Positions 21,557 through 63,912 are shown, counted from the first letter of the stretch. The stretch is 64,000 bases of DNA from an uncultured delta proteobacterium (GCA_963708515.1 CAVPSX010000005.1:2958-66957); one strand, 5' to 3'. Translations and numbers: made by a program. Notes: generated from the sequence alone by a model not told the origin.

Positions 21557-22315
21557 CTATATTTTCCCGACCGATGCAAGATAAATGGTAAATTCATCCT
21601 TGCCGTCAATTCTCAGTAATTGATCCATGGCCTCCTGATCATAGGCGGCGATGGCACAGGTTCCGGCCTGGATGGCTTCGCAGGCAAGGTAAAGATTCTG
21701 GCAAACATGTCCGGCGTCAATGGCGATGACTTTGTGCGCGGCCAGGCTATAGCGCCACTCCATACGGTATGGAATGGCCGTCCAGATAAACGTCACGGCT
21801 GATTGAGCGGGATAGGGCTGCCCGAAGACAGCCTTTACAAGTTTCTGCGCAAGGTGATCTTCGCTGAATTCAAAGAGGAGCTGGTGTTCAAGCGGCAGAT
21901 AACGGTAAACGCCCGGATCCACGCACTTAACATTGAAAACGCACAGGTACGTTTCCAGGGCATGCCTGCATCCTGCGGATGGAACAGTCCTCAATGCATG
22001 GCCTTCATCCAGCTTTCCTTTCACCCCCTGTGTCGCCCAAAGCAGAAACGACAGCTCTTCCAGCGTCAGATGATCCTGACGGTAGGTTCTGCGGCTCTGC
22101 CTGTTTTGAATGGCTGAGATCAAATCCAACGCGGCGATATTCTCAAAACGATGGGGCGTGATCAGATCGATGCGCCGGGCTTGCTTGTCGAATGGTTTTT
22201 CAATGGGCGGGGGCGCAATGCCCCGGTTCTGGTCCGCTTGAGAGAAGTCAACCCGCTTCCGGATGGAATCCTTGAGAAAGTAACGAAACGGTTCTGTCAA
22301 TTCTTCCCTGTCCAT
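21557..22315 (-). CDS. SagB/ThcOx-type nitroreductase-family dehydrogenase
   Basis: 252 aa with SRRTYRQDHLTLEELSFLLWATQGV and VPSAGCRHALETY. Confidence 0.7.
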   Translation of the reverse strand: MDREELTEPFRYFLKDSIRKRVDFSQADQNRGIAPPPIEKPFDKQARRIDLITPHRFENIAALDLISAIQNRQSRRTYRQDHLTLEELSFLLWATQGVKGKLDEGHALRTVPSAGCRHALETYLCVFNVKCVDPGVYRYLPLEHQLLFEFSEDHLAQKLVKAVFGQPYPAQSAVTFIWTAIPYRMEWRYSLAAHKVIAIDAGHVCQNLYLACEAIQAGTCAIAAYDQEAMDQLLRIDGKDEFTIYLASVGKI

Positions 22316-22473: not shown

Positions 22474-22935
22474 TTATTCGGCCCGGGATTTGTCGATAAT
22501 TTCACCAATGAGCGTTGCCGTCTTCCCTGTGAGCATCAGGCAATACTCGAATTTATCGCTTCCCCGGTAACGCTTGGCCTGGTTGGTATCCGTCCAGTCG
22601 ATGCCGACTATATCGCGGCATAAAATTATTCCATCTGTGACTTCGTTTTTGAACCTTTTCATGAACGTCCGGCAATACTTCCACATCCTGATGTCCGTCT
22701 GACGTCCCGGTTCAGAACGACCATGGAGCAAGCCGATCACTGCCAAACCACCGATCACGGCGCCGCAGACCTCGCCATGGGCCCCCAGACCGCCGCCGAA
22801 TGAGTCCATTGCCTTGATCAAATCATCACTCTTCATCCCAAGCTTTTCCTGCCCGACCGCAAGAATGGCCTGGCTTCAGTGCAAACCTTCACGGAATATC
22901 CGCTGCGCCTTTTCCTGCATCTCTATGGGGGTCAT
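22474..22935 (-). CDS. C_GCAxxG_C_C family redox protein with in-frame UGA (candidate selenocysteine) replacing the first conserved Cys
   Basis: ATG 22935 overlaps the MBL stop (TGATG). It reads MTPIEMQEKAQRIFREGLH-UGA(22878-22876)-SQAILAVGQEKLG... and continues into the ORF-track fragment 22474-22836, which carries GEVCGAVIGG. The UGA sits where the family has G-x-x-C-[AS]-Q-[AS]-[IV]-L. Confidence 0.55.
22846..22865 (-). promoter_or_regulatory. Candidate bacterial SECIS hairpin
   Basis: The RNA is UUCUUGC-GGUCGG-GCAGGAA, a 7-bp stem including one G-U pair. It starts 10 nt after the UGA, and the GGUC in the loop begins 17 nt after it. Confidence 0.45.
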
Positions 22936-23843
22936 CACAAATCTCCTTTCTTGTTTAATGCGAGCCGGATTCCCCTGAAGCTGTTGTTCAGGAAAAAAGT
23001 TTCCCTTTTTTTGACATCGGCGGGCAATTGATGAAAACAGGACAGTCCGGGGTCTTGAGCCAGCAACGCTTCAAACACTTTTTCTTCAAACATAGGGCTT
23101 TCCAATCTGCTGAATTGGCCTATGACGGTTGCCCAGAGATCCGTTTGGGCGGATGCCAGATCGAGTAATTTCGGGATTTCAAACGACAGCCCGAAATGAC
23201 CGTAACAGAGCACGGCGGCGTCGATATTTTTGAGAATGCCGAGAGACCTCCTGTAATGATCCAGATCGAATCCGGGCGGCGCCGCGATGCGCAGATAAAG
23301 ATCCTTTTCCATCGGGTAAAAGATCCCGGCTGCCTCGCCTGCAAAAAGCACGTCGCCGATCCGGTAGCAGAGATGATGGGGCGCATGTCCGGGTGTTTCA
23401 TAAACTTTAACGGCCATCCCGCCGGCCGGGAAATCAAGCCTGCCGTCGAGATTCTTTTCGGAAACAGGGGCAGGCTCGCCATAAATAACTGCCGTTTCGT
23501 AGAGGACCTCCAGAGAGACGTCCCACAACTTTTCCGGTTTCAGCAGGTGCGGAACACCCCGGGGGTGGCAGATCGCCTTGGTGTCGGGATAGCGGTCCAG
23601 CAGCAACCCCAATCCACCGGCATGGTCCAGATGAATATGCGTGAGCAGGATATGGTCAATACGCCGGATCTTCATTTCCTCCAACGCCTGCAAGAGTGCA
23701 GGCAGGGTTGAACGGGGTCCGGGATCGACGAGAATGACGGTATGATCGTCCCTGTAAAGCCAGGCGCACAGAAAGTGATGGAAGCCTTCTTTCGGCAGAT
23801 CCAGTGGGATGAGATAGAGGTTGTCGAATAAAGGCTTGGTCAC
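22935..23843 (-). CDS. MBL-fold metallo-hydrolase
   Basis: 302 aa with LLTHIHLDHAGG (HxHxDH). Confidence 0.8.
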   Translation of the reverse strand: MTKPLFDNLYLIPLDLPKEGFHHFLCAWLYRDDHTVILVDPGPRSTLPALLQALEEMKIRRIDHILLTHIHLDHAGGLGLLLDRYPDTKAICHPRGVPHLLKPEKLWDVSLEVLYETAVIYGEPAPVSEKNLDGRLDFPAGGMAVKVYETPGHAPHHLCYRIGDVLFAGEAAGIFYPMEKDLYLRIAAPPGFDLDHYRRSLGILKNIDAAVLCYGHFGLSFEIPKLLDLASAQTDLWATVIGQFSRLESPMFEEKVFEALLAQDPGLSCFHQLPADVKKRETFFLNNSFRGIRLALNKKGDL

Positions 23844-23896: not shown

Positions 23897-25975
23897 TCAG
23901 TCGTCGGTCAGCAGGCCGATCATCTCCTCAATGTCGGTTGTCTGTTTTTTGCAGCTTCTGCCGGTACAGACATAGATGAGAGCTTCACCTTTCTCACCCT
24001 TGAATGATGCTGTAAACGGGGCAATCTTTCTTATGGCTGCGGCTTGTTTGCCGTCCGGAACAAGCATGACTATCTTATTGGGCAGAAAGCGCGCCGAGAG
24101 GGTCCGGTTGATCGTCTGGACGGCCGGGCTGTCCTGTTCACCCGCGATGACGATTTCATGAGAGGGGCCCATCAGATAGTCGAGCGCGGTCAGATGGAAG
24201 GCAACGGCGGAAGGGCTTTGCTGGATGATCCCGGCAAACGCTCCACAGATTTGCTCCGCTTTCTGCTCAAGCTGCATGTCGCCGGTTATGCGCGCCAGGC
24301 GCAGCAGGTTCATTGCGCTGACTGAGTTTCCGGACGGAATGGCGCCGTCATGAATGCTTTTTTTCCTGAAAAGGAGCTCTTCATGGTCGTTTGCGGTCAA
24401 GAAAAATCCGCCCTCCCGGTCGTCCCAGAAGCGTTTCAGCAGATGATCATTAAGTTCGATCGCCGCTTCGAGGTATCGCACGTCAAAGCCCGTTTGGTAA
24501 AGCTCGATGAGGCCCCAGACCATAAAGGCATAGTCATCCAGAAACGCGGGAATGGCGGCGGCATGGTTGCGCCGGCAGTGCAGAAGGCTGCCGCGGTCAT
24601 CGCGCATGGCCGACAGGATGAAGTCAGCCGCATCGCGGGCGGCGAGTTCATACTGGCTATTGCTAAGGACGCGGGCGCCGAATGCGAGGCTCGCGATCAT
24701 CATGCCGTTCCAGTCTGTAAGGATTTTATCGTCGCGGAACGGATGAATTCTTTTTTCACGCACTCCGTACAATTTGTTCCGGCATGTTTCCAGCAGGGTG
24801 GCCAGTCTCTGGGGGGCCATGGTCAATTGTATCGCCCATTCATCGAGCGGCATCTTCAGATGGAGGATATTGGCCCCGGTCTTCTGCCTTTTGGCTTCAT
24901 CGAAATAGTTTCCGCCGCTGTCGACAGAATAGATCCTGTTCCAGATCGCGGCTTCCGGACGCGTCAGGGCCTTCTCAATGTCTTCTTTAGTCCATACATA
25001 GAATCGGCCCTCCTCACCTTCGGAATCCGCGTCCTGAGCCGAATAGAAACCTCCCTGCGGCGATTTGAGGTCTCGCAGGACATAAGCGAAGATCTCGCTC
25101 GCGGTCTTTGCGTACTCATGCCCTCCCGTTGCTTGATAGGTTTCCAGACAGGCCACGGCGATCATGGCCTGATCGTAGAGCATTTTCTCGAAGTGCGGCA
25201 ACAGCCAGGCCGCATCCGTCGCGTATCGGTGGAAGCCGAAACCGACATGATCGAAAATCCCGCCGCGACGCATGGCCTGCAGCGTATTTTCCACCATGCG
25301 AAGCGCCTGCTCATCGTTAAAACGTTTCCAGCACCGCAGCAGATAGATGAGCTTTTGCGGAGTCGGAAATTTGGGGGCGCCGCCGAAGCCACCGGATTCA
25401 GGATCGTATGCACCCGTCAGCTCATCGAGCGCGCTGCTCAACAGCGATATCTCTGAAAGCGGTCCCGCTGCGGGAGGGCGGTAATTTCTCAACAGTTCCG
25501 TGACTTGACCGGCTGACTTCAGCAAATCCGGTCTCCTGTTTTTCCAGAGATCGGCTATCCGGTCGGCCAGCTCCCGCATCCCGATGAGTCCGTGCCTGCT
25601 TTCAGGCGGGAAGTAGGTTCCGGCAAAGAAAGGCTGTTTATCCGGCGTCATGATGATCGTCAGAGGCCAGCCGCCGTTTCCGGTCATGGCCTGGCAGACC
25701 GTCATATAAACGGCGTCGATATCCGGCCGTTCTTCACGATCCACCTTCACATTGACGAATGTGTTGTTCATCAATGCGGCAATGGCAGGATTCTCGAAGC
25801 ACTCATGGGCCATAACGTGGCACCAGTGGCATGTGGAATAGCCGATGGACAGAAAGACAGGCTTGTTTCCCGCCCTGGCCGCGGCAAATGCTTCATCCCC
25901 CCAAGCGTACCAATCCACCGCGTTGGTCGCGTGCTGGAGAAGATAGGGGCTTGTTTCCGTGCTGAGTCTATTCAT
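23897..25975 (-). CDS. Thioredoxin-domain protein, DUF255/YyaL family (N-acylglucosamine-epimerase-like C-terminal barrel)
   Basis: 692 aa with [22 protein letters not shown]...[18 protein letters not shown]. Confidence 0.85.
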
Positions 25976-25982
25976 AACCGGA

Positions 25983-26471
25983 TCAGAGCTTGGTCAGCAC
26001 GCTCAGCGCCCAGGCTTTCGCGTCCTCGAGGTCCGCCTGATCGGGATGGGCTTCGGCGCTCTGGGCTTCTTCAGCCCAGGCCCTGTTTTCCTGCTGCTGC
26101 ATCAGCATTTCGATGATCCGGGGGTTCACCTTGCCGCGGCAGCCGAAATGCCCGAGAACGTTGGCCTTGGCTGCCAGTCCGAGGGCATTTTCAAAAGCCT
26201 GCCGGGGCAGTTGACCGCCCCGGAGCGAGCCGTGCGTCGAGAAAAAAGCGACCCTCTGGCCCTTCCCGAGCGCCTTGATAAACGGCTGCGCCTTTTCCGG
26301 AACACTGTGCGCATAAACGGGGAAGCCGCAGAAAACGACATCGTAGCCTGCCGCTCCCTCCAGATCCTGGATCGGCTTGATCTCTTTGTCCACAGGCAGC
26401 GCTTCGTATATCGCCTGTGCGACTTTTTTCGTATTGCCGGTTTTCGAAAAGTAAGTAACCAGTGCTTTCAT
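25983..26471 (-). CDS. Flavodoxin
   Basis: 162 aa with [25 protein letters not shown]. Confidence 0.8.
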
Positions 26472-52702: not shown

Positions 52703-53647
52703 TTATGAAAAGTTATTGAGGGCCCACCTTACCCGCGTTTCAGCAGTAGTAAAAACGTCCGATGGCGCTCGATCAACCTGGTCAAGGCGTTTTCGCAGGC
52801 CCTTACCATTGGCCAACTGAATGGCCAGTCCCGGACGGGCGTTTAGTTCCAGAAGCAGAGGCCCTCGGTCTTTATCAATCACCAGATCCACGCCAAGATA
52901 CCCTAAGCCGGTAATCTCGAAAGTTTCAGCCGCCATCCACAGCATCTTTTCCCAGTAAGGGACCTGAATTCCGCTGACAGGGTTCACTGTGTCCGGATGG
53001 TGGGTGATGACCTGGGAGAGATGGACAGCAGACGTCGTAATACCATCGGCCATTTCGATGCCCGCACCGATTGCCCCTCGATGAAGGTTGGCCTTGCCGT
53101 CGGATGCTTTGGTAGGAAGTCGTACCATGGACATCACCGGAACGCCACGATAGACAACAATCCTCACGTCCGGAACACCGAGAAAGGTTACGGCGGCAAA
53201 GATAGGATCCGGATGAACCAGCGCTTCCACAATAGCAAAGTCCTCAAGCCCTGATAAGGAAAAAATCCCCGAGAGGATTTCAGAGACATGATAGGAGAAA
53301 TCCTCAAAGGAGATAACCTCTCCGCTTTGCGTAGCATATCCTCCCTCCGTGCGATTCCTGATAAGAAGAATCCCACTTCCTCCAGAACCACGTGCCGGTT
53401 TGACCACAAATTCATTATGCCCCCCGAGAGCCTCCTGAATCCCGGTAATATCCCCATGCGTTTCTACCAGGTAGTATAGAGGGGGCGTGGGAATATGATG
53501 GGTCTCTGCCAATTTCTTGGTCAGCATCTTATTATCGACGCGAGGGAAAAATGAACGGGGGTTGCACCGCATGATGTAGTCGGCATTCCGGCTGTTTATG
53601 CCCAGGATTCCAGCTTTCTTCAATCCACGGAACGCTTGCCAAATCAC
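52703..53647 (-). CDS. Alpha-L-glutamate-ligase-related ATP-grasp protein (RimK-like)
   Basis: 314 aa from GTG 53647, which overlaps the upstream TGA (GTGA). It reads IWQAFRGLKKAGILGINSRNADYI...VVKPARGSGGSGI...LELNARPGL. Confidence 0.75.
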   Translation of the reverse strand: MIWQAFRGLKKAGILGINSRNADYIMRCNPRSFFPRVDNKMLTKKLAETHHIPTPPLYYLVETHGDITGIQEALGGHNEFVVKPARGSGGSGILLIRNRTEGGYATQSGEVISFEDFSYHVSEILSGIFSLSGLEDFAIVEALVHPDPIFAAVTFLGVPDVRIVVYRGVPVMSMVRLPTKASDGKANLHRGAIGAGIEMADGITTSAVHLSQVITHHPDTVNPVSGIQVPYWEKMLWMAAETFEITGLGYLGVDLVIDKDRGPLLLELNARPGLAIQLANGKGLRKRLDQVDRAPSDVFTTAETRVRWALNNFS

Positions 53648-55174
53648 GGTAAGCCTCTCAGCGCGCGAAAACGGAAGATTTCCGATAGACGATATCCGGT
53701 ATAACGTCCCAGAAGAATCTGCGCTGCGGCTACGGCTGCCAGCAATTCGGGAAATACAAAAAAGGTGATCTGAATGGGCTCCCAGCTTATAATTCCATAG
53801 GCAAGGATAGACACTGAAAGCGCTTCCGGCAGCAGTCCGGAAACCTTCCGCCACTCCTGCTTCCTCGACGAGGACGAAGAATCGTTCGATGACCATGGTT
53901 AATATGACAAAGGGAAGTAACCCGACAGCCATTAATTGCCGCAGTCCAATTTTGTTCCCCACCAGGGCAAGGATCGTGAAACAGGCAATCACGAAGGTCA
54001 GGATCACAGACATGCGGGGGACCAGCAGGAGACGGAATTTGTCGAGAAACAGGCGTACGGCGTATCCAATAAATAATATTCCAGCAAAGATTCCCAAACC
54101 GTAAATCAATCCCGTGCCACGAAAGGCCAAAGCCATCAGTACGGGCATGAAAATTCCGAAGGTGGGAAAACCAACCATATTTCTCAGGAATCCGACGATG
54201 AGGGCTCCTACAGGGATCAACAGAAGAATACGAAAAGTCTGCTGGAATTCAGGGGGCAGGCGAAAGAGCGACCAATTGTCGAGAAAGCCGGTAGAATGTT
54301 GGGTTCGCTCAAAATGCAAACGCCAATGACTGACAATCTCTCTATTGGTGATCCATCGTATTTCCAGAAGCTCACCACCGGACACATGTGCAACAGGCAA
54401 ACCATCCGTTGCCAATGGGAGAAGCGTGGCCGTATTTTTTTCAATCTCCCCTGTCTCTGGCCAGAGGCTCTCCCATATTTTGCCGGTCCATACTTCGATC
54501 CAGATGAGAGGCCGGGCCTCAATCCCTTCAATAAGCCGTAATCCCTGTACAGGGCGGGACGGAAGGCCTGAAGCTTCTAACAATGTTTGAATTGCGGCCA
54601 CCCGGCCATATTTTTCCTGAACAATGCGCCACGCTTGAACATCTTGATCTTTTGGAGAAGGTTGTATCCACTTCCCCTTGACAGCCGCGATAACTGCCTT
54701 GACTCGGGCCGCTGGAGCAAGTTGCATCCAGTTCCCTGCTAAACGCTCGGCCAAGGTCTGTTCTTCCCTTTCTATCCCCGGTGAGACCTTTTCACCGGTT
54801 GGAGGGTCAGTTCTGAAGGAGCGCCCCGGGCGAACAAGGATAATCGCCCGGTAATTAATCTCTTCTTCTCCCGGTCCTATTGATCCTGACCAAGCGCCAA
54901 TCCGATTTGGCCCTTTCTGGACCAGGTTGAAATTCAGGGTTCCCGATGTGACTTTTTCTTCGAGGAGCATTCGCCCGGCCTGCTCAATCGGGAGCGCAAG
55001 CGTTAGAGAGGTTTCTCCTTTTCCGCCCTTAATGTGGGCATCTACCAGGAGCTGCCATGTTTTGCCCGGGGCGGTCGGGAAGATTGGATATCCCATCCAA
55101 ACAATACGATAGGCAAGGAGACAGGCTGTCAGGAGAAGCAGGGCTAACGCCAGCAGGACAGCAGGACGTTTCAC
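53644..55174 (-). pseudogene. 7TM-transglutaminase-like membrane protein (inactive TGase domain plus 7 TM), one frameshift near 53820
   Basis: Downstream of ...EGFRTAAGSA, the shifted frame reads LSVSILAYGIISWEPIQITFFVFPELLAAVAAAQILLGRYTGYRLSEIFRFRALRGLP-TGA. This is the typical C-terminus of the family. The 823-aa ORF in the track is an artefactual fusion. Confidence 0.7.
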
Positions 55175-55788
55175 TTATTTTGAACCTCAGGACAAATCGG
55201 TGGGGCACACTTCTCTTTCATACAGTCAACGATAAAATTTTTCTTGAGGGCATTACGACCCACCAGGAGTGGATACTTGACTTTGGATCGATCATTGAGA
55301 TTGACACGAGTACGGATATGCTTGCTTCCGATGCAGAACTCCATCATCACCACGGGTCTCTGTTCACGCGCTTCGGCAGACCGGACGGTTTTCCGAGCAA
55401 CGATCGGTAAGCTTAATTGCAGACCCCCGTACTTTTCCGGCAACTTAAAATCGACAATATCTCCCTTAATGACCATATCCCTGGCATCAAGAGACGTTTG
55501 AGCTGCTCCTGTGTCAATGCGGGCCGGCAACTTCACCCGCCATGGCAGAATGATGACGTCTTCTACAATGCCAACGGCAATTCTCTCTTCAGCTTCAACC
55601 ATTCCTGCCAAACTAAAGGCGACTATGAAGAAAGCTATACAGAATAAACCACCCTTTATTTTATTCCTGTTCCAATAAATGTTGAGTATCTTCCCAAAAT
55701 CCAAGGTATATTCCCTACGTTTTTTATTTGGTGAGAGTCCATTATCATATAAGAGAAAAATAATAAAGTTCGCATTGTACGTCAACAA
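55171..55788 (-). CDS. Retropepsin-like ATP-dependent zinc protease family protein (DUF785/RimB-like), exported
   Basis: It has PARIDTGAAQTSLDA...YPLLVGRNALKKNFIVD. The start codon is uncertain; the true start is probably 100-150 nt downstream of 55788. Confidence 0.65.
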   Translation of the reverse strand: MLTYNANFIIFLLYDNGLSPNKKRREYTLDFGKILNIYWNRNKIKGGLFCIAFFIVAFSLAGMVEAEERIAVGIVEDVIILPWRVKLPARIDTGAAQTSLDARDMVIKGDIVDFKLPEKYGGLQLSLPIVARKTVRSAEAREQRPVVMMEFCIGSKHIRTRVNLNDRSKVKYPLLVGRNALKKNFIVDCMKEKCAPPICPEVQNK

Positions 55789-56979: not shown

Positions 56980-57606
56980 TCAGGGGCGCAACAAACGGCC
57001 GGCTCCGGCCATGGTTTCGGCGATGTCGTACATATTGGAAATATGACCCACTGCAACCGAATCGCCAAGTTCGAAATAGTTTACGCAGGTCCCACAGATC
57101 AGGATGTCCACGCCGGTCTGCGCCAATTGCTGCAAATCGTCGAGGACCGCTGAATCCTTCGCGGCAAGCTTGACTCCGGCGTTGTAACAGATGATGATAT
57201 CGGGCAAAGGGTTCAATTGCAGCAGGGTATGGATGAAGCCCCGTATGAGAATGTCCCCGAGGACGTCATCCCCCCGTCCCATGTGGTTATCCGACAGGAC
57301 GACCACAAAAGGCCTACGATCCTTCACGGGCGCAGCGGCGCACGACAGCTCACCGGCCAGCGCCTCGTCATCCGCCGGGGCCTGAGGTGTTGCCCCGGTC
57401 CTTGTGAGGGTAATTTTCCTGATCTCGCCGCCTTTGTCCGTTACGGAGAAGCAACAGGCTGTCTTTGCCGCCATTCGCCGGATGTTTTCTACGGCAAAGG
57501 GATTATCCACGAGGACGATCACTTCTTCATTTGCTTCTATTGCCTTTTTCGCTAAAATAACCGGTTGCGGGCAGGCAAGCCCTCTGGCGTCAATAGTTGT
57601 CGGCAT
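56980..57606 (-). CDS. yedF: Selenium-metabolism protein YedF type (TusA/SirA-like domain fused to DsrE-like domain)
   Basis: 209 aa from ATG 57606 with AGGAG 5 nt upstream. It has IDARGLACPQPVILAKKAI, then VVVLSDNHMGRGDD...ILICGTCVNYF. The longer ORF-track start at 57795 overlaps the upstream gene. Confidence 0.7.
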   Translation of the reverse strand: MPTTIDARGLACPQPVILAKKAIEANEEVIVLVDNPFAVENIRRMAAKTACCFSVTDKGGEIRKITLTRTGATPQAPADDEALAGELSCAAAPVKDRRPFVVVLSDNHMGRGDDVLGDILIRGFIHTLLQLNPLPDIIICYNAGVKLAAKDSAVLDDLQQLAQTGVDILICGTCVNYFELGDSVAVGHISNMYDIAETMAGAGRLLRP

Positions 57607-57613
57607 AGAACTC

Positions 57614-57958
57614 CTATTTTCTGTCACTCTCTTTTTCCAGCAGCAGCGGACCGATGACGGTTGTCCGGATCTCCATGACATAGTCGTCGGCCGACGATGT
57701 ACAAGCATCGGCATCTGTCCGAAGATAAATGCCCAGGTTGCATGGGTTGAAGCGAATGACCACAATGTCCGTCGGGCCATAATGCTGTGCCGCATAATGA
57801 TCGACGACGTCCTGACGATTGGTCGTAAGGGCGCGGATGATTCCGTCCTTGTCGGGTTTCAGGCCTTCTCTTCTGATTTGTTCCCACATTTCCGGCGTCG
57901 TGACGTGATAGAAGTAAGTGTCGAAAAGATCATCGATATGATCGTCAAGGGCAGGCAT
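57614..57958 (-). CDS. Hypothetical protein
   Basis: 114-aa ORF ending 5 nt before the yedF RBS. I recognise no motif. Confidence 0.45.
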   Translation of the reverse strand: MPALDDHIDDLFDTYFYHVTTPEMWEQIRREGLKPDKDGIIRALTTNRQDVVDHYAAQHYGPTDIVVIRFNPCNLGIYLRTDADACTSSADDYVMEIRTTVIGPLLLEKESDRK

Positions 57959-58075: not shown

Positions 58076-58173
58076 ATTAATAACTACTATGCAATTATGA
58101 ATAATATGAATTGGATTTCCCGGTCCTTTTTGTGATAGTAGCACGAAAAATATTTCAAGGGAGGTCTTCATTT

Positions 58174-59248
58174 ATGAGAAATGTTTTTTCTTCGCGCACA
58201 GGCATTATCATTGTCGGCGCCCTGATCGGCATCGGGGCGGCTGTGCTGCAGTACCTGGGAAATCCCGCCAATATGGGCATCTGCGTGGCCTGTATGGAGC
58301 GCGATATCGCCGGCGCCCTCGGTCTTCACCGGGCGGATGTGGTGCAGTATATACGGCCGGAAATCATCGGTTTTGTCCTGGGCGCCTTCATCGCCGCCCT
58401 CATCGCCCGCGAACACAAGCCCCGTGGCGGTTCGGCGCCGCTTATCCGCTTCTTTCTGGGCGTCTTTGCCATGATCGGCGCCCTGGTATTTCTGGGATGC
58501 CCCTGGCGGGCCCTCCTGCGGCTGGCCGGCGGTGACGGGAACGCGATTCTCGGACTCCTGGGACTCGCGACAGGCATTTTTATCGGCATCCAGTTTCTGA
58601 AGCACGGTTTCAGCCTTGGCCGTTCCTATCCGCAAAAGCCTCTAAGCGGCTGGGTTTTGCCGGCTCTTATGGCAGGGCTCTTTGTGCTTCTGGTCTTTCA
58701 GGTCTCCTTCAGCCCGGGCGGTCCCATCTTTTTCAGCCAGAAGGGTCCGGGTTCCCAGCACGCTCCCATATGGATCAGCCTGGCGGCTGGGTCTGATCAT
58801 CGGCGCCCTGGCCCAGCGCAGTCGCTTCTGCACGATGGGCGCTTTCCGGGACGTCATGCTGATCCGGGATTTTCATCTTGTCAGCGGTGTGGCTGCCCTG
58901 CTGATTTTCGCCTTTGGAATCAACCTCATTCTCGGCCAGTTTAAAGCGGGATTTGCGGGTCAGCCCATCGCCCATACGGATCACCTCTGGAATTTTCTCG
59001 GCATGGCCCTGTCGGGTCTGGCTTTTGTCCTCGCCGGGGGATGCCCGGGGAGGCAGCTTTTCCTCTCCGGAGAAGGCGACATGGATGCGGGGATCTTTGT
59101 TCTCGGCATGATCATCGGCGCCGCGGTGGCCCATAATTTCGCCCTGGCCAGTTCACCGAAAGGCATCACCGCTTTTGCACCGGCGGCCGTTATCCTGGGA
59201 TTCGTCTTCTGTATGGTTGTCGGCTTGACACAGCGGGACCGCGGATAA
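58174..59248 (+). pseudogene. yedE: YedE-family selenium/sulfur-compound membrane transporter, one frameshift near 58780
   Basis: AAGGGAGG RBS. The first half has GNPANMGICVACMERD. The second half, in another frame, has GLIIGALAQRSRFCTMGAFRD. ORFs 58111-58944 and 58682-59248 join at ...PIWISLAAG|LGLIIG. Confidence 0.75.
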
Positions 59249-59283: not shown

Positions 59284-59507
59284 ATGATAATGACGACAAA
59301 ACGTATCGACGCCAGGGGGCTTTCATGCCCCCAGCCTGTTGTTCTCGTGGATCGGGCCGTTCAGGAGGGGAACACCGATCTGGAAATCCTTGTGGATAAT
59401 GAAGTCTCCCGGGAAAATGTCCTGCGCATGGCCGCCCGGCGGGGCTTGAAGACCGATTCCGCCAGGAAGGTTCGGATACGATTATCCGGGCGACCAGGGC
59501 ACAATAG
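59284..59507 (+). pseudogene. TusA/SirA-like sulfur/selenium carrier protein, probable frameshift near 59460
   Basis: It has RIDARGLSCPQPVVLV (CPxP). As written, the frame runs 150 nt into the next gene. A shifted frame ends ...EGSDTIIRATRAQ-TAG at 59507, giving the family-typical length of about 74 aa. Confidence 0.6.
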
Positions 59508-59524
59508 AGAAAGAGGATTCATTT

Positions 59525-60682
59525 ATGGAAGTGGTCTATCTGGACAATGCCGCGACGTCCTTTCCCAAACCGGAGGCGGCGCTGGAGGCCATGATGCGCT
59601 ACCAGCGCGAGATCGGCGGATCGCCCGGCCGTTCAGGCCACAGGCTTTCCATCGAGGCTGGCCGCATTGTTCATGAAACCAGGGAAGTCCTGGCGCGTCT
59701 TTTCAATATTGACGATCCCCTCCAGATCGTCTTCACCAAAAATGCCACGGAGGCCCTTAATATCGCACTGGTCGGTCTGCTTAAGCCCGGGGACCATGTC
59801 ATCACAACGGGCATGGAACATAACGCCGTGATGCGGCCCCTGCGTTTTCTCGCATCCCGTGGGGTTGACCTGTCGATCGTTCCCTGTTCTGACCGCGGCG
59901 AACTGGACCCTGATGATATTCGTGCAGCCTTCCGGACGAATACGCGTGCCGTCGTGATGACCCACGCCTCGAATGTGACGGGAACGATCATGCCGGTTCA
60001 GGAAATCGGCCTTCTGACTCGCGAGCGCGTAGACACTGTCCTGTGCGTTGATGCGGCCCAGACAGCGGGGGCGCTGCCCATCGACGTGGCGGCGATGGCC
60101 GTCGATCTGCTGGCCTTTACGGGGCACAAATCCCTTTACGGTCCCCAGGGCACAGGCGGCCTCTACATCCGGAAAGGTCTCGATAAGAAAATAGCGCCTC
60201 TCATGCGGGGTGGAACGGGGAGCCGTTCGGAATTCGAGGAACAGCCCGACTTCATGCCCGACAAGTATGAATGCGGCACGCCCAATACAGTCGGCCTGGC
60301 CGGATTGAGTGCAGGTGCGGCGTACATTCTTGAGAAGGGCGTCGAAGCGGTTCGGGATAAGGAAGATGCCCTGACCCGACTCTTTCTGGACCGACTGCAT
60401 GCGCTTGGTGAAGACGTCACCATTTACGGCCCCCGGTCGGCACAGGACCGGATTTCCGTGATTTCGTTCAAACTCCGGGATATAACTGCGTCCGATGCAG
60501 CCTTATATCTGGATGAGCATTGGGGCATCATGTGCCGCCCCGGTCTTCACTGCGCCCCGGCCGCCCATCGGACCATCGGGACTTTCCCCCACGGAACGGT
60601 GCGCTTCAGTTTCGGTTTTTTTAATACGGAAGCGCATGCCGATCTGGCCGCCGAAGCTCTGCGGCAGCTCGTGAAAAGATGA
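59525..60682 (+). CDS. Class V aminotransferase-fold cysteine desulfurase / selenocysteine-lyase-like enzyme
   Basis: 385 aa with FTGHKSLYGPQGTGGLY (PLP Lys) and CRPGLHCAP (active-site Cys loop). Confidence 0.8.
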   Translation: MEVVYLDNAATSFPKPEAALEAMMRYQREIGGSPGRSGHRLSIEAGRIVHETREVLARLFNIDDPLQIVFTKNATEALNIALVGLLKPGDHVITTGMEHNAVMRPLRFLASRGVDLSIVPCSDRGELDPDDIRAAFRTNTRAVVMTHASNVTGTIMPVQEIGLLTRERVDTVLCVDAAQTAGALPIDVAAMAVDLLAFTGHKSLYGPQGTGGLYIRKGLDKKIAPLMRGGTGSRSEFEEQPDFMPDKYECGTPNTVGLAGLSAGAAYILEKGVEAVRDKEDALTRLFLDRLHALGEDVTIYGPRSAQDRISVISFKLRDITASDAALYLDEHWGIMCRPGLHCAPAAHRTIGTFPHGTVRFSFGFFNTEAHADLAAEALRQLVKR

Positions 60683-61163: not shown

Positions 61164-63912
61164 ATGGAGCAGAAAAGACTCGATGAAGCGCGAAAGCAAA
61201 AGATCCCCTGGAAAAAGTGGGGGCCTTACCTGAGTGAGCGCCAGTGGGGCACTGTTCGGGAAGACTACAGCGAAAACGGTGATGCCTGGAACTTCTTTAC
61301 CCATGACCATGCCCGGTCCCGGGCGTATCGTTGGGGTGAAGACGGGTTGGGAGGAATTTCCGACGACAAGCAACGGCTCTGCTTTGCCCTTGCGTTGTGG
61401 AACAGCAAGGACCCGATCCTCAAGGAGCGCCTCTTCGGTCTGACCAACAGCGAGGGAAACCACGGCGAGGACGTAAAGGAGTACTACTTCTACCTCGACA
61501 GCACGCCGACGCACTCGTATATGCATTACCTCTACAAGTATCCCCAGTCGGCCTTTCCTTACGGCGACCTCATCGAGACGAACCGGCGACGCACCCGCGA
61601 TGAGATGGAGTACGAACTTCTCGACACGGGTGTCTTTGCGGAGGACCGTTACTTCGACGTCTATGTGGAATACGCCAAGGGAGGACCGGAGGACATCTTG
61701 GTGCAGATCACCGCCGCCAACCGGGGGCCGGAGGCAGCCGAACTGCATATACTGCCGACGCTCTGGTTCCGGAACGACTGGGCGTCGTGGGTGGCCAGGC
61801 CCGCCGAGAAGCCGATGCTCAAGCAAATCAAGGGGCCGGCGGGTACAACGGTGATTGAGGCAACGCATCCGGTATTGGGTATATACTACCTTTACTGCGA
61901 AGGCGACGCACCGCTGCTCTTTACCGAAAACGAAACCAACCATGCACAACTCGGCCTCGACTACCCGGACGCAGGCCCGTACCTTAAGGACGGCATCCAT
62001 AACTACGTGGTGCATGGCAAACAGAGTGCGGTGAATCCAGAAAAGACGGGAACGAAGGTGTCGGCGCACTACCGGCTGAAGATCGGTCCCGGCCAGTCAG
62101 CGACGGTAAGGCTGCGCCTCACGGACCAGGCCCCTGCCGGGCAGGGCAGGAAAACCACCGGCAATGCCCACCTCTTCGGGCAGGGCTTTCAAGAGACTCT
62201 GGCTGCCCGGCTGCGGGAGGCGGACGGGTTCTATCGGTCCGTGACTCCTCCCTCGGCCTCCGCGGATGCAGCCAATGTAATGCGCCAGGCCATCGCCGGC
62301 ATGCTCTGGAGCAAGCAGTATTATTACCTCGATGCCGATCAGTGGCTGGAGGAACACCGCGCTCACCCGCTGCATCAGGGGAGCCGCGAGTTCCGGAACC
62401 GGGAGTGGTTCCACATGGTCAACGAGGACATCATCTCCATGCCCGACAAGTGGGAGTACCCCTGGTACGCGGCCTGGGACCTTGCCTTCCACACACTGCC
62501 GATCTCGATCGTGGATCCGGACTTTGCCAAGGAGCAAATGGAACTGATGCTCCGCGGGGCGTACATTCATCCCAGCGGCCAGATTCCCGCCTACGAGTGG
62601 AACTTCAGCGACGTGAATCCGCCGGTGCACGCCTGGGCGACCCTGTTTTTGCACCGCACCGAGCAGGCGCTGCGAGGCGAGACGGACCTCGACTTCCTCA
62701 AGGTGGCGTTCAACAAGCTTATTTTGAACTTCACCTGGTGGGTCAACCGCAAGGACCGGTTCGGCAAAAACGTCTTCGAGGGCGGGTTCCTCGGCCTCGA
62801 CAACATCGGCGTCTTCGATCGATCGGCTCCGCTTGCCGACCGGGGGCTACCTGGAGCAGGCCGACGGCACGGCGTGGATGGCCCTCTTCACCCAGAACAT
62901 GGCCGAGATCGCTCTGGAACTTGCCAGCTACGACCGCACTTACGAGGACATGGCCTTCAAGTTCGTGGAGCATTTTCTCTATATCGCTGCCGCCATGAAT
63001 CGGCCCGGGCAGGATGGCATGTGGGACGAGGAGGACGGCTTCTACTACGACCTCCTGCGGCTCCCCGACGGCAGCGCCACGCGGCTCAAGGTGCGCTCCA
63101 TGGTGGGGCTCCTGCCGTTGTGTGCCACGACGGTGATAGAAAAGTGGCAGCGAGATCGTGATCCACGGGTAACGGCAGCGCTTCAGACACGCTTGCGCCA
63201 GATGCCGGAGCTCCTGGATTCAGTCCACCCCACGGGCCCGGGTCACTTAGGCGTGGCCGAACGGGGGGTCATTGCCCTGGTCAACCCGGAGCGGCTCCGC
63301 CGGATCCTCTCGAAGATGCTCGATGAGAACGAGTTCCTGAGTCCCTTTGGCATCCGCTCACTTTCCAAGTTTCACGAGCGGCACCCTTACGTCTTCCACA
63401 CGGGCGGTCAGGAATACCGTGTGGACTATCTGCCCGCAGAGTCGAACACCGGCATGTTCGGCGGCAACTCCAACTGGCGGGGCCCGATCTGGATGCCCGT
63501 GAACGCCATTATCATCAGGGCACTTTTGCAATATTACCTCTACTACGGTGACAACTTCAAGATTGAGTGCCCGACCGGTTCAGGCAGGATGATGAACCTC
63601 TTTGAGGTGGCCAAGGAGATTGCGGACCGGCTTACCCGGATCTTCCTGCGTGATGAGCGCGGCCAGCGGCCGGTGTACGGCGGCGCGGAGAAGTTCCATC
63701 ATGATCCCAACTGGCGGGACCACATCCTGTTTTACGAGTACTTCCATGGGGACAACGGTGCAGGCCTCGGTGCGAGCCACCAGACGGGCTGGACAGGAGT
63801 GGTCGCCAAGCTGATCCAGCTCTTCGGAATCCTTGATCCGAAAAAGTCGCTTGAGGTCGGCAAGGGTGCGGCATTCATTCGCGGAAAGTCGGAAAGTGGG
63901 GTGGAGGAATGA
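61164..63912 (+). pseudogene. GH63-like (MGH1-type) glycoside hydrolase/glucosidase, one frameshift near 62834
   Basis: It has WKKWGPYLSERQWGTVREDYS...YRWGEDGL...LTNSEGNHGEDVKEYYFY. ORFs 61164-63161 and 62833-63912 join as ...GVFDRSAPL|PTGGYLEQADGTAWMA.... Confidence 0.75.

Follow-up and report, generated by a model that had tools for sequence, protein, structure and literature searches.

On the minus strand of the 64,000-nt stretch of DNA analysed here (the window), a 153-codon reading frame follows directly on the gene for an MBL-fold hydrolase and contains an in-frame TGA at codon 20 (Table 1). Of this frame the mechanical ORF list has just the final 120 aa, from an ATG at 22836, while the frame itself opens at the ATG at 22935 and translates as MTPIEMQEKAQRIFREGLH-TGA-SQAILAVGQEKLGMK... 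The MBL-fold ORF ends in ...GAT TTG TGA, and the A of this stop (22935) is at the same time the first base of the ATG. An earlier reading, made from the sequence alone (the sequence-only reading), had proposed that the ATG is coupled to the MBL stop through the overlap TGATG and that it opens the frame of the 120-aa ORF further upstream; both points can be read directly in the minus strand. The overlap is identical in two further assemblies of the locus (L083 and L084), and the layout of a GGAG motif followed by the ATG is common to the window and its close relative L002.

Table 1 Features of the selenoprotein locus and of other regions of the window discussed in the text.
Feature	Position	Strand	Remarks
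Full reading frame of the putative selenoprotein	22474..22935	-	153 codons + TAA (translation); predicted Sec = residue 20
GGAG, Shine-Dalgarno-like motif	22943..22946	-	7 nt 5' of ATG 22935; sequence reading
TGATG overlap	22933..22937	-	MBL-fold stop 22937..22935 and ATG 22935..22933
UGA, codon 20, probably read as Sec	22876..22878	-	aligned with the family's first invariant Cys
Extended hairpin	22838..22873	-	lower stem CCAGGC 22873..22868 / GCUUGG 22843..22838
Upper SECIS stem-loop	22846..22865	-	UUCUUGC-GGUCGG-GCAGGAA; 7 bp, 6-nt loop beginning GGU
Hairpin parts	22865..22859, 22858..22853, 22852..22846	-	UUCUUGC, GGUCGG, GCAGGAA
Cys57 codon	22765..22767	-	second invariant Cys, in xCGAxxG motif; alignments A1, A4
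Cys106 codon	22618..22620	-	third invariant Cys; alignments A1, A4
Cys132 codon	22540..22542	-	fourth invariant Cys; alignments A1, A4
TAA stop	22476..22474	-	ends the frame opened at ATG 22935
MBL-fold hydrolase gene, 302 aa	22935..23843	-	PF00753, E = 4e-28; translationally coupled, context only
SagB-type nitroreductase-family protein	21557..22315	-	
Thioredox_DsbH (DUF255) protein, 692 aa, and flavodoxin	23897..26471	-	
Inactive transglutaminase, 7TM, ATP-grasp (823-aa ORF), then putative ATP-dependent zinc protease	52703..55788	-	zinc protease PF05618
YedF	56980..57795	-	TIGR03527, E = 4e-59
YedE-family putative selenium transporter	58111..59248	+	TIGR04112; 58111..58944 = profile positions 2-192, 58682..59248 = 188-336
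TusA/YedF-N-like small protein	59284..59676	+	ORF runs on into next gene
Cysteine desulfurase	59525..60682	+	TIGR01977; near selenocysteine lyase SclA (E = 4e-121, below cut-off)
GH63/MGH1-like glycoside hydrolase	61164..63912	+	61164..63161 = profile positions 1-111, 62833..63912 = 252-354

The immediate surroundings of the gene are redox-flavoured, with a SagB-type nitroreductase-family protein downstream and a Thioredox_DsbH (DUF255) protein together with a flavodoxin beyond the MBL-fold gene. As synteny extends only to the closest relatives L002 and L003, the only ones that keep the MBL-fold neighbour, no firm functional link between this flank and the selenoprotein can be drawn, and among the 80 orthologous loci described below no universal gene neighbour was found and no pathway is indicated. 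The sequence-only reading had also placed a selenium-metabolism locus in the window, and YedF, YedE, a TusA-like protein and an SclA-like desulfurase could indeed be identified there, the true start of YedF probably lying near ORF residue 64. Neither selD nor selA nor selB adjoins this cluster, none of the three occurs elsewhere within the 64-kb window, and ARAGORN found no tRNA in it, tRNA-Sec included. A further cluster, which runs from an inactive transglutaminase to a putative ATP-dependent zinc protease, is unrelated to the selenoprotein, and a blind search for further TGA-split ORFs in the window was too noisy to be of use.

With Cys put in place of the TGA, the window protein matched the profile HMM PF09719 (C_GCAxxG_C_C) with E = 3e-26 and 92.2 bits, against a cut-off of 27, and TIGR01909 with 57.4 bits against a cut-off of 47.4. 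Because the PF09719 match begins at residue 19, the TGA falls on the first Cys of the family; this is where the sequence-only reading had located it, and 19 orthologues carry TGC in the same place. The four signature positions, U20, C57 (in EVCGAVIGG), C106 and C132, are invariant columns in alignments A1, A3 and A4, and full-length orthologues measure 148-167 aa in 70+ loci. Three neighbouring families do not include the window protein: it reaches 71.6 bits with the DVU_1555 family model NF045669 (under the cut-off of 103), 18.4 bits with the split-Soret cytochrome c model NF047622 (under the cut-off of 400) and 52 bits with the HUGP/GUXX-star model NF045501 (cut-off 325), the last over profile positions 9-136 of 236.

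A protein search over a space of 5.8 billion gave 194 close homologues. Among the best 120 of these, which were inspected, 108 start downstream of the site and are thus called truncated, nine span the full length and have Cys there (P0003, P0008, P0010 and others have Cys in the residue-20 column) and three, the JGI products P0011, P0047 and P0116, have Trp at the Sec position because the gene caller translated TGA as Trp. In addition, scanning GTDB with one genome for each species yielded 80 loci, all of them from Syntrophales, Syntrophaceae or Smithellaceae MAGs, of which 74 were alignable at the site and together with the window, L001 and L002 make up 77 sites. Of these, 58 carry TGA and 19 TGC, and no other codon occurs. 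Both the description of the site as a classic Cys/Sec exchange position and the homologue alignment that the sequence-only reading had suggested as a check are borne out by this column, which is a Cys column with Sec (TGA) and Cys (TGC) orthologues side by side. Moreover, the 19-21 codons 5' of the site (M-T/N-P-x-E-M-x-E-K-A...) are in frame and conserved as protein, and their four-fold codons vary freely, with four different codons in use for the Ala at -10, as is expected of translated sequence. On a neighbour-joining tree, Fitch parsimony reconstructs TGA as ancestral and requires six or more switches between Sec and Cys.

Downstream of the TGA the mRNA can form UUCUUGC-GGUCGG-GCAGGAA, which the sequence-only reading had singled out as a SECIS-like hairpin and which proved to be the minimum-free-energy fold, extended by a lower stem. 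It starts 11 nt past the TGA, and the 66-nt segment folds with -22.7 kcal/mol (z = -2.3 against shuffles); the lower stem is less conserved, its pairs holding in only some orthologues. According to the bSECIS rules (PMC13188914), the loop has 3-9 nt with a G within its first two positions, the upper stem 4-16 bp, the stretch from UGA to loop 16-37 nt and the fold a free energy of -7.5 kcal/mol or lower; the window hairpin passes with a loop of 6 nt, a stem of 7 bp, a spacing of 17 nt and -8.0 kcal/mol. Like the consensus bacterial SECIS (Zhang & Gladyshev 2005, via PMC13188914), it lies within the coding region and agrees with the published constraints. Searches of Rfam with the whole window at the gathering threshold and with positions 22780-22960 at E <= 10 found no SECIS and no credible RNA family. 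The GGUC loop of the hairpin resembles the loop of the E. coli fdhF SECIS, whereas, unlike in fdhF and the consensus, its upper stem shows no obvious bulged U.

Considering that, of all the window's TGA triplets, some 3.9% pass the same rules, the hairpin taken alone is mildly unusual and weak evidence; what makes it significant are the comparative data, which tie it to the TGA. In a strict implementation of the rules, 53 out of 58 TGA loci pass compared with one out of 19 TGC loci, and this association is strong evidence. The seven stem pairs are standard pairs in 96% of the cells of an alignment of 53 sequences, compared with 53-62% when the partners are slid by one to three columns. Compensatory covariation in the same alignment was not above that of shuffles, with one pair showing double changes; such changes are rare because the hairpin sequence is nearly invariant, and as covariation counts were for this reason uninformative, synonymous-site entropy was used. 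In TGA loci, the entropy at the V-L-A-V-G codons (+4 to +8) is 0.13-0.44 bits, compared with 1.1-1.55 bits in TGC loci (1.4-1.55 for Ala +6, Val +7 and Gly +8) and 1.5-1.9 bits at flanking four-fold codons. This synonymous-site constraint, which is confined to the TGA loci, is the decisive signal that the hairpin is under selection at the RNA level.

Individual loci catch the turnover between Sec and Cys as snapshots. Two TGC loci (L072/L076) differ from their TGA sisters (L071/L073) by the stem-breaking change GCG>UCG, a third TGC locus (L034; OY764159.1, 3054..) keeps the whole stem but has C for the loop U, and L078/L079, which lie within an otherwise Cys-type Smithella clade, have TGA together with a hairpin of their own, GCGGC-GGUCG-GCCGC. 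The hairpin is retained with altered sequence not only in this pair but also in L028/L033 and L063.

An error of sequencing or assembly could have produced the TGA, or the gene could be a pseudogene through a recent nonsense mutation, and this has to be considered since the assembly does carry indel lesions, as the sequence-only reading had cautioned. The YedE-family gene is split over two overlapping frames near 58.78 kb, an apparent frameshift (near 58,780) that may be an assembly indel or reflect a pseudogene, and the GH63/MGH1-like gene lies in two frames, a second apparent frameshift near 62.8-63.1 kb. Furthermore, the closest GTDB relative, L003 (CAVWGC010000006.1, 3001..3459; 88% identical), has TGA and SECIS in an ORF that breaks after 74 codons, probably through a frameshift. 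The TGA itself, however, is present in three independent short-read assemblies from different read sets, two of which (L083, ERR11561443, and L084, SRR25991876) agree completely over the region while the other (L001, SRR12667203) has it among synonymous differences, and it recurs in 58 of the 77 orthologous sites between flanks that are in frame and conserved. On these grounds a lesion is ruled out, and we give the pseudogene reading practically no weight. A genuine UGA codon might instead be read as a standard amino acid (Trp, Cys or Gly), by reassignment or near-cognate readthrough, as the Trp in the three JGI translations would imply. Yet 19 of the 28 long ORFs in the window stop at TGA, more than at any other codon, and the MBL-fold gene directly upstream also ends in TGA, so that it is not reassigned here; in the orthologues the alternative residue is always Cys, encoded by TGC, and the SECIS-type hairpin stands at canonical distance from TGA and does not accompany TGC. 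As Syntrophales are in addition known Sec decoders, the cultured Syntrophus aciditrophicus having 19 selenoproteins, SelD included (PMC1794560), insertion of a standard amino acid is extremely unlikely.

The gene callers themselves suggest a different solution, in which the UGA is a true stop that leaves a leader of 19 residues, and translation restarts at the ATG at 22836 or nearby to give a 120-aa product without the first Cys. Such an ATG is present, and products of this kind are what was called for the 108 truncated entries among the best 120 homologues, including MHB8772373.1. Against this, the downstream start is not conserved, the callers choosing GTG, TTG or ATG at different codons, and the residues between the UGA and these starts (SQAVLAVGQEKLG) are among the most conserved of the family. 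The first Cys, which would be missing, is present without exception in the Cys-form orthologues and the split-Soret homologues, the 19 codons 5' of the UGA evolve as coding sequence, and loss of the TGA coincides with decay of the hairpin. A truncated product is thus very unlikely as well, and we are confident that the gene is a genuine, conserved and intact selenoprotein gene of a Syntrophales bacterium. Translation would start at the ATG that overlaps the MBL-fold stop, and the ribosome would reach the UGA at codon 20, where the hairpin would serve as a bacterial SECIS and, by analogy with E. coli fdhF, recruit SelB-GTP-Sec-tRNA(Sec), leading to insertion of Sec instead of termination. Decoding in this genome would presumably be SelB-dependent, and the predicted product is an all-helical PF09719/TIGR01909 protein of 153 residues with Sec for the first of the four invariant cysteines.

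A hint to the function of the protein comes from its sole PDB relative by sequence profile, the N-terminal domain of 1H21 (E = 6e-5 and 2e-4), which is the split-Soret cytochrome c (Ssc) of Desulfovibrio desulfuricans ATCC 27774. Homologues of this domain are PF09719 members, which NCBI names C-GCAxxG-C-C family proteins, and in a joint MAFFT alignment with Ssc all four Cys columns (20, 57, 106 and 132), the Sec column included, are invariant. Ssc differs from the window protein in that four residues are inserted behind its first Cys and in that this position holds Cys, not Sec; the window protein, unlike Ssc, has no signal peptide, no cytochrome domain and no CXXCH haem motif anywhere in its 153 aa. 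In Ssc the iron centre is reportedly a [2Fe-2S] cluster with four Cys ligands. For the Cys orthologue P0003 (67% identical to the window protein), AF2 gave a confident model (pLDDT 87.5) that is all-helical, with residues 20 and 106 each the first residue of a helix and residue 57 directly preceding one. Foldseek with this model found no neighbour in the PDB with E < 1, 1H21 included, so the structural link to 1H21 comes from sequence profiles only and is a remote one (E about 1e-4).

Abreu et al. 2003 reported 'a novel iron centre' in split-Soret cytochrome c. Since the four positions are invariant in this domain, which carries a non-haem iron centre, the likeliest role of Sec20 would be to ligate an iron(-sulfur) centre or to take part in its redox chemistry, and the protein would be a small one that serves in electron transfer or redox reactions. 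A different role, that of a metal-free catalytic redox site where Sec and one of the cysteines form a selenenylsulfide, is a serious possibility, if not the one we would favour. It agrees with the label 'putative redox-active protein' that Pfam and JGI give the family, with the fact that most bacterial selenoproteins are thiol-type oxidoreductases (PMC1976440), and with the placement of C20, C57 and C106 at or one residue before a helix N-terminus in the P0003 model. On the other hand, four dispersed invariant cysteines with no CxxC or UxxC look more like metal ligands, and the only solved homologue is a domain reported to have a non-haem iron centre. Judging from these sequence relationships, an iron(-sulfur)-centre role of Sec appears somewhat likelier than the metal-free one. 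The most far-reaching version, an uncatalogued free-standing Sec form whose Sec20 selenolate would ligate a [2Fe-2S]-type centre and which would be ancestral in the order, with at least six switches to Cys, is doubtful when taken as a whole.

The sequence-only reading had regarded the gene as a candidate for a new selenoprotein form, a view that is not supported. PF09719 is already listed among prokaryotic selenoprotein families in a 2022 review (PMC9312934), and a 2026 review (PMC13188914) distinguishes two forms of PF09719 selenoproteins, with exemplars MGD8741185.1 for form 1 and WP_012158890.1 for form 2, which go back to Zhang & Gladyshev 2007 and 2008 (GOS study); the former, on the Olavius delta-1 symbiont (PMC1976440), named a 'putative redox protein'. 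The NCBIfam name of TIGR01909 is likewise 'C-GCAxxG-C-C family (seleno)protein'. Like both forms, the window protein combines a single Sec in place of a conserved Cys with Cys homologues and a SECIS hairpin directly downstream, and form 1 also comes from a deltaproteobacterial lineage; the Syntrophales orthologue group differs from the two forms in that public databases list most of its members as shortened proteins and not as selenoproteins. The Sec position or motif of forms 1 and 2 is not stated in PMC9312934, PMC13188914, PMC1976440 or the GOS paper, and four files of the GOS supplement contain no C-GCAxxG-C-C family member; the window protein shares a family with these forms and may share their Sec position.

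A stand-in for this comparison is offered by the curated HUGP/GUXX-star fusion selenoprotein family (NF045501), the N-terminal domain of which is homologous to the window protein (52 bits over residues 5-129), with its H-U-G-P motif mapping to H19-U20-S21-Q22. Changing HCSQ to HCGP at the first Cys raised the NF045501 score from 52.0 to 59.3 bits, whereas making it at the second or third Cys lowered the score to 48.6 and 46.6 bits, respectively, which indicates that a curated selenoprotein family already has Sec in the residue-20 column. Unlike members of that family, the window protein lacks a C-terminal GUXX-star domain and has only a single Sec. Sec in a C-GCAxxG-C-C protein is therefore not new in kind, and the window gene is a member of a recognised selenoprotein family.

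In conclusion, the gene belongs to a group that databases usually shorten. GenBank and most gene callers place the protein start 5-50 codons downstream and so drop the first putative ligand residue, as in the recent GenBank entry MHB8772373.1 (P0088), a 131-aa truncated 'C-GCAxxG-C-C family protein'. Because the gene is nearly always called truncated (108 of the best 120 homologues), the selenoproteomes of Syntrophales MAGs are undercounted. The biological import of the finding is modest, and the current picture of selenoprotein biology stays as it is. Within the family, the clade supplies many closely spaced natural exchanges of Sec and Cys, with the SECIS gained or decaying in step. If the four Cys/Sec positions bind iron, Sec would be a metal ligand here and not the residue of a thiol oxidoreductase, an idea that can be tested.
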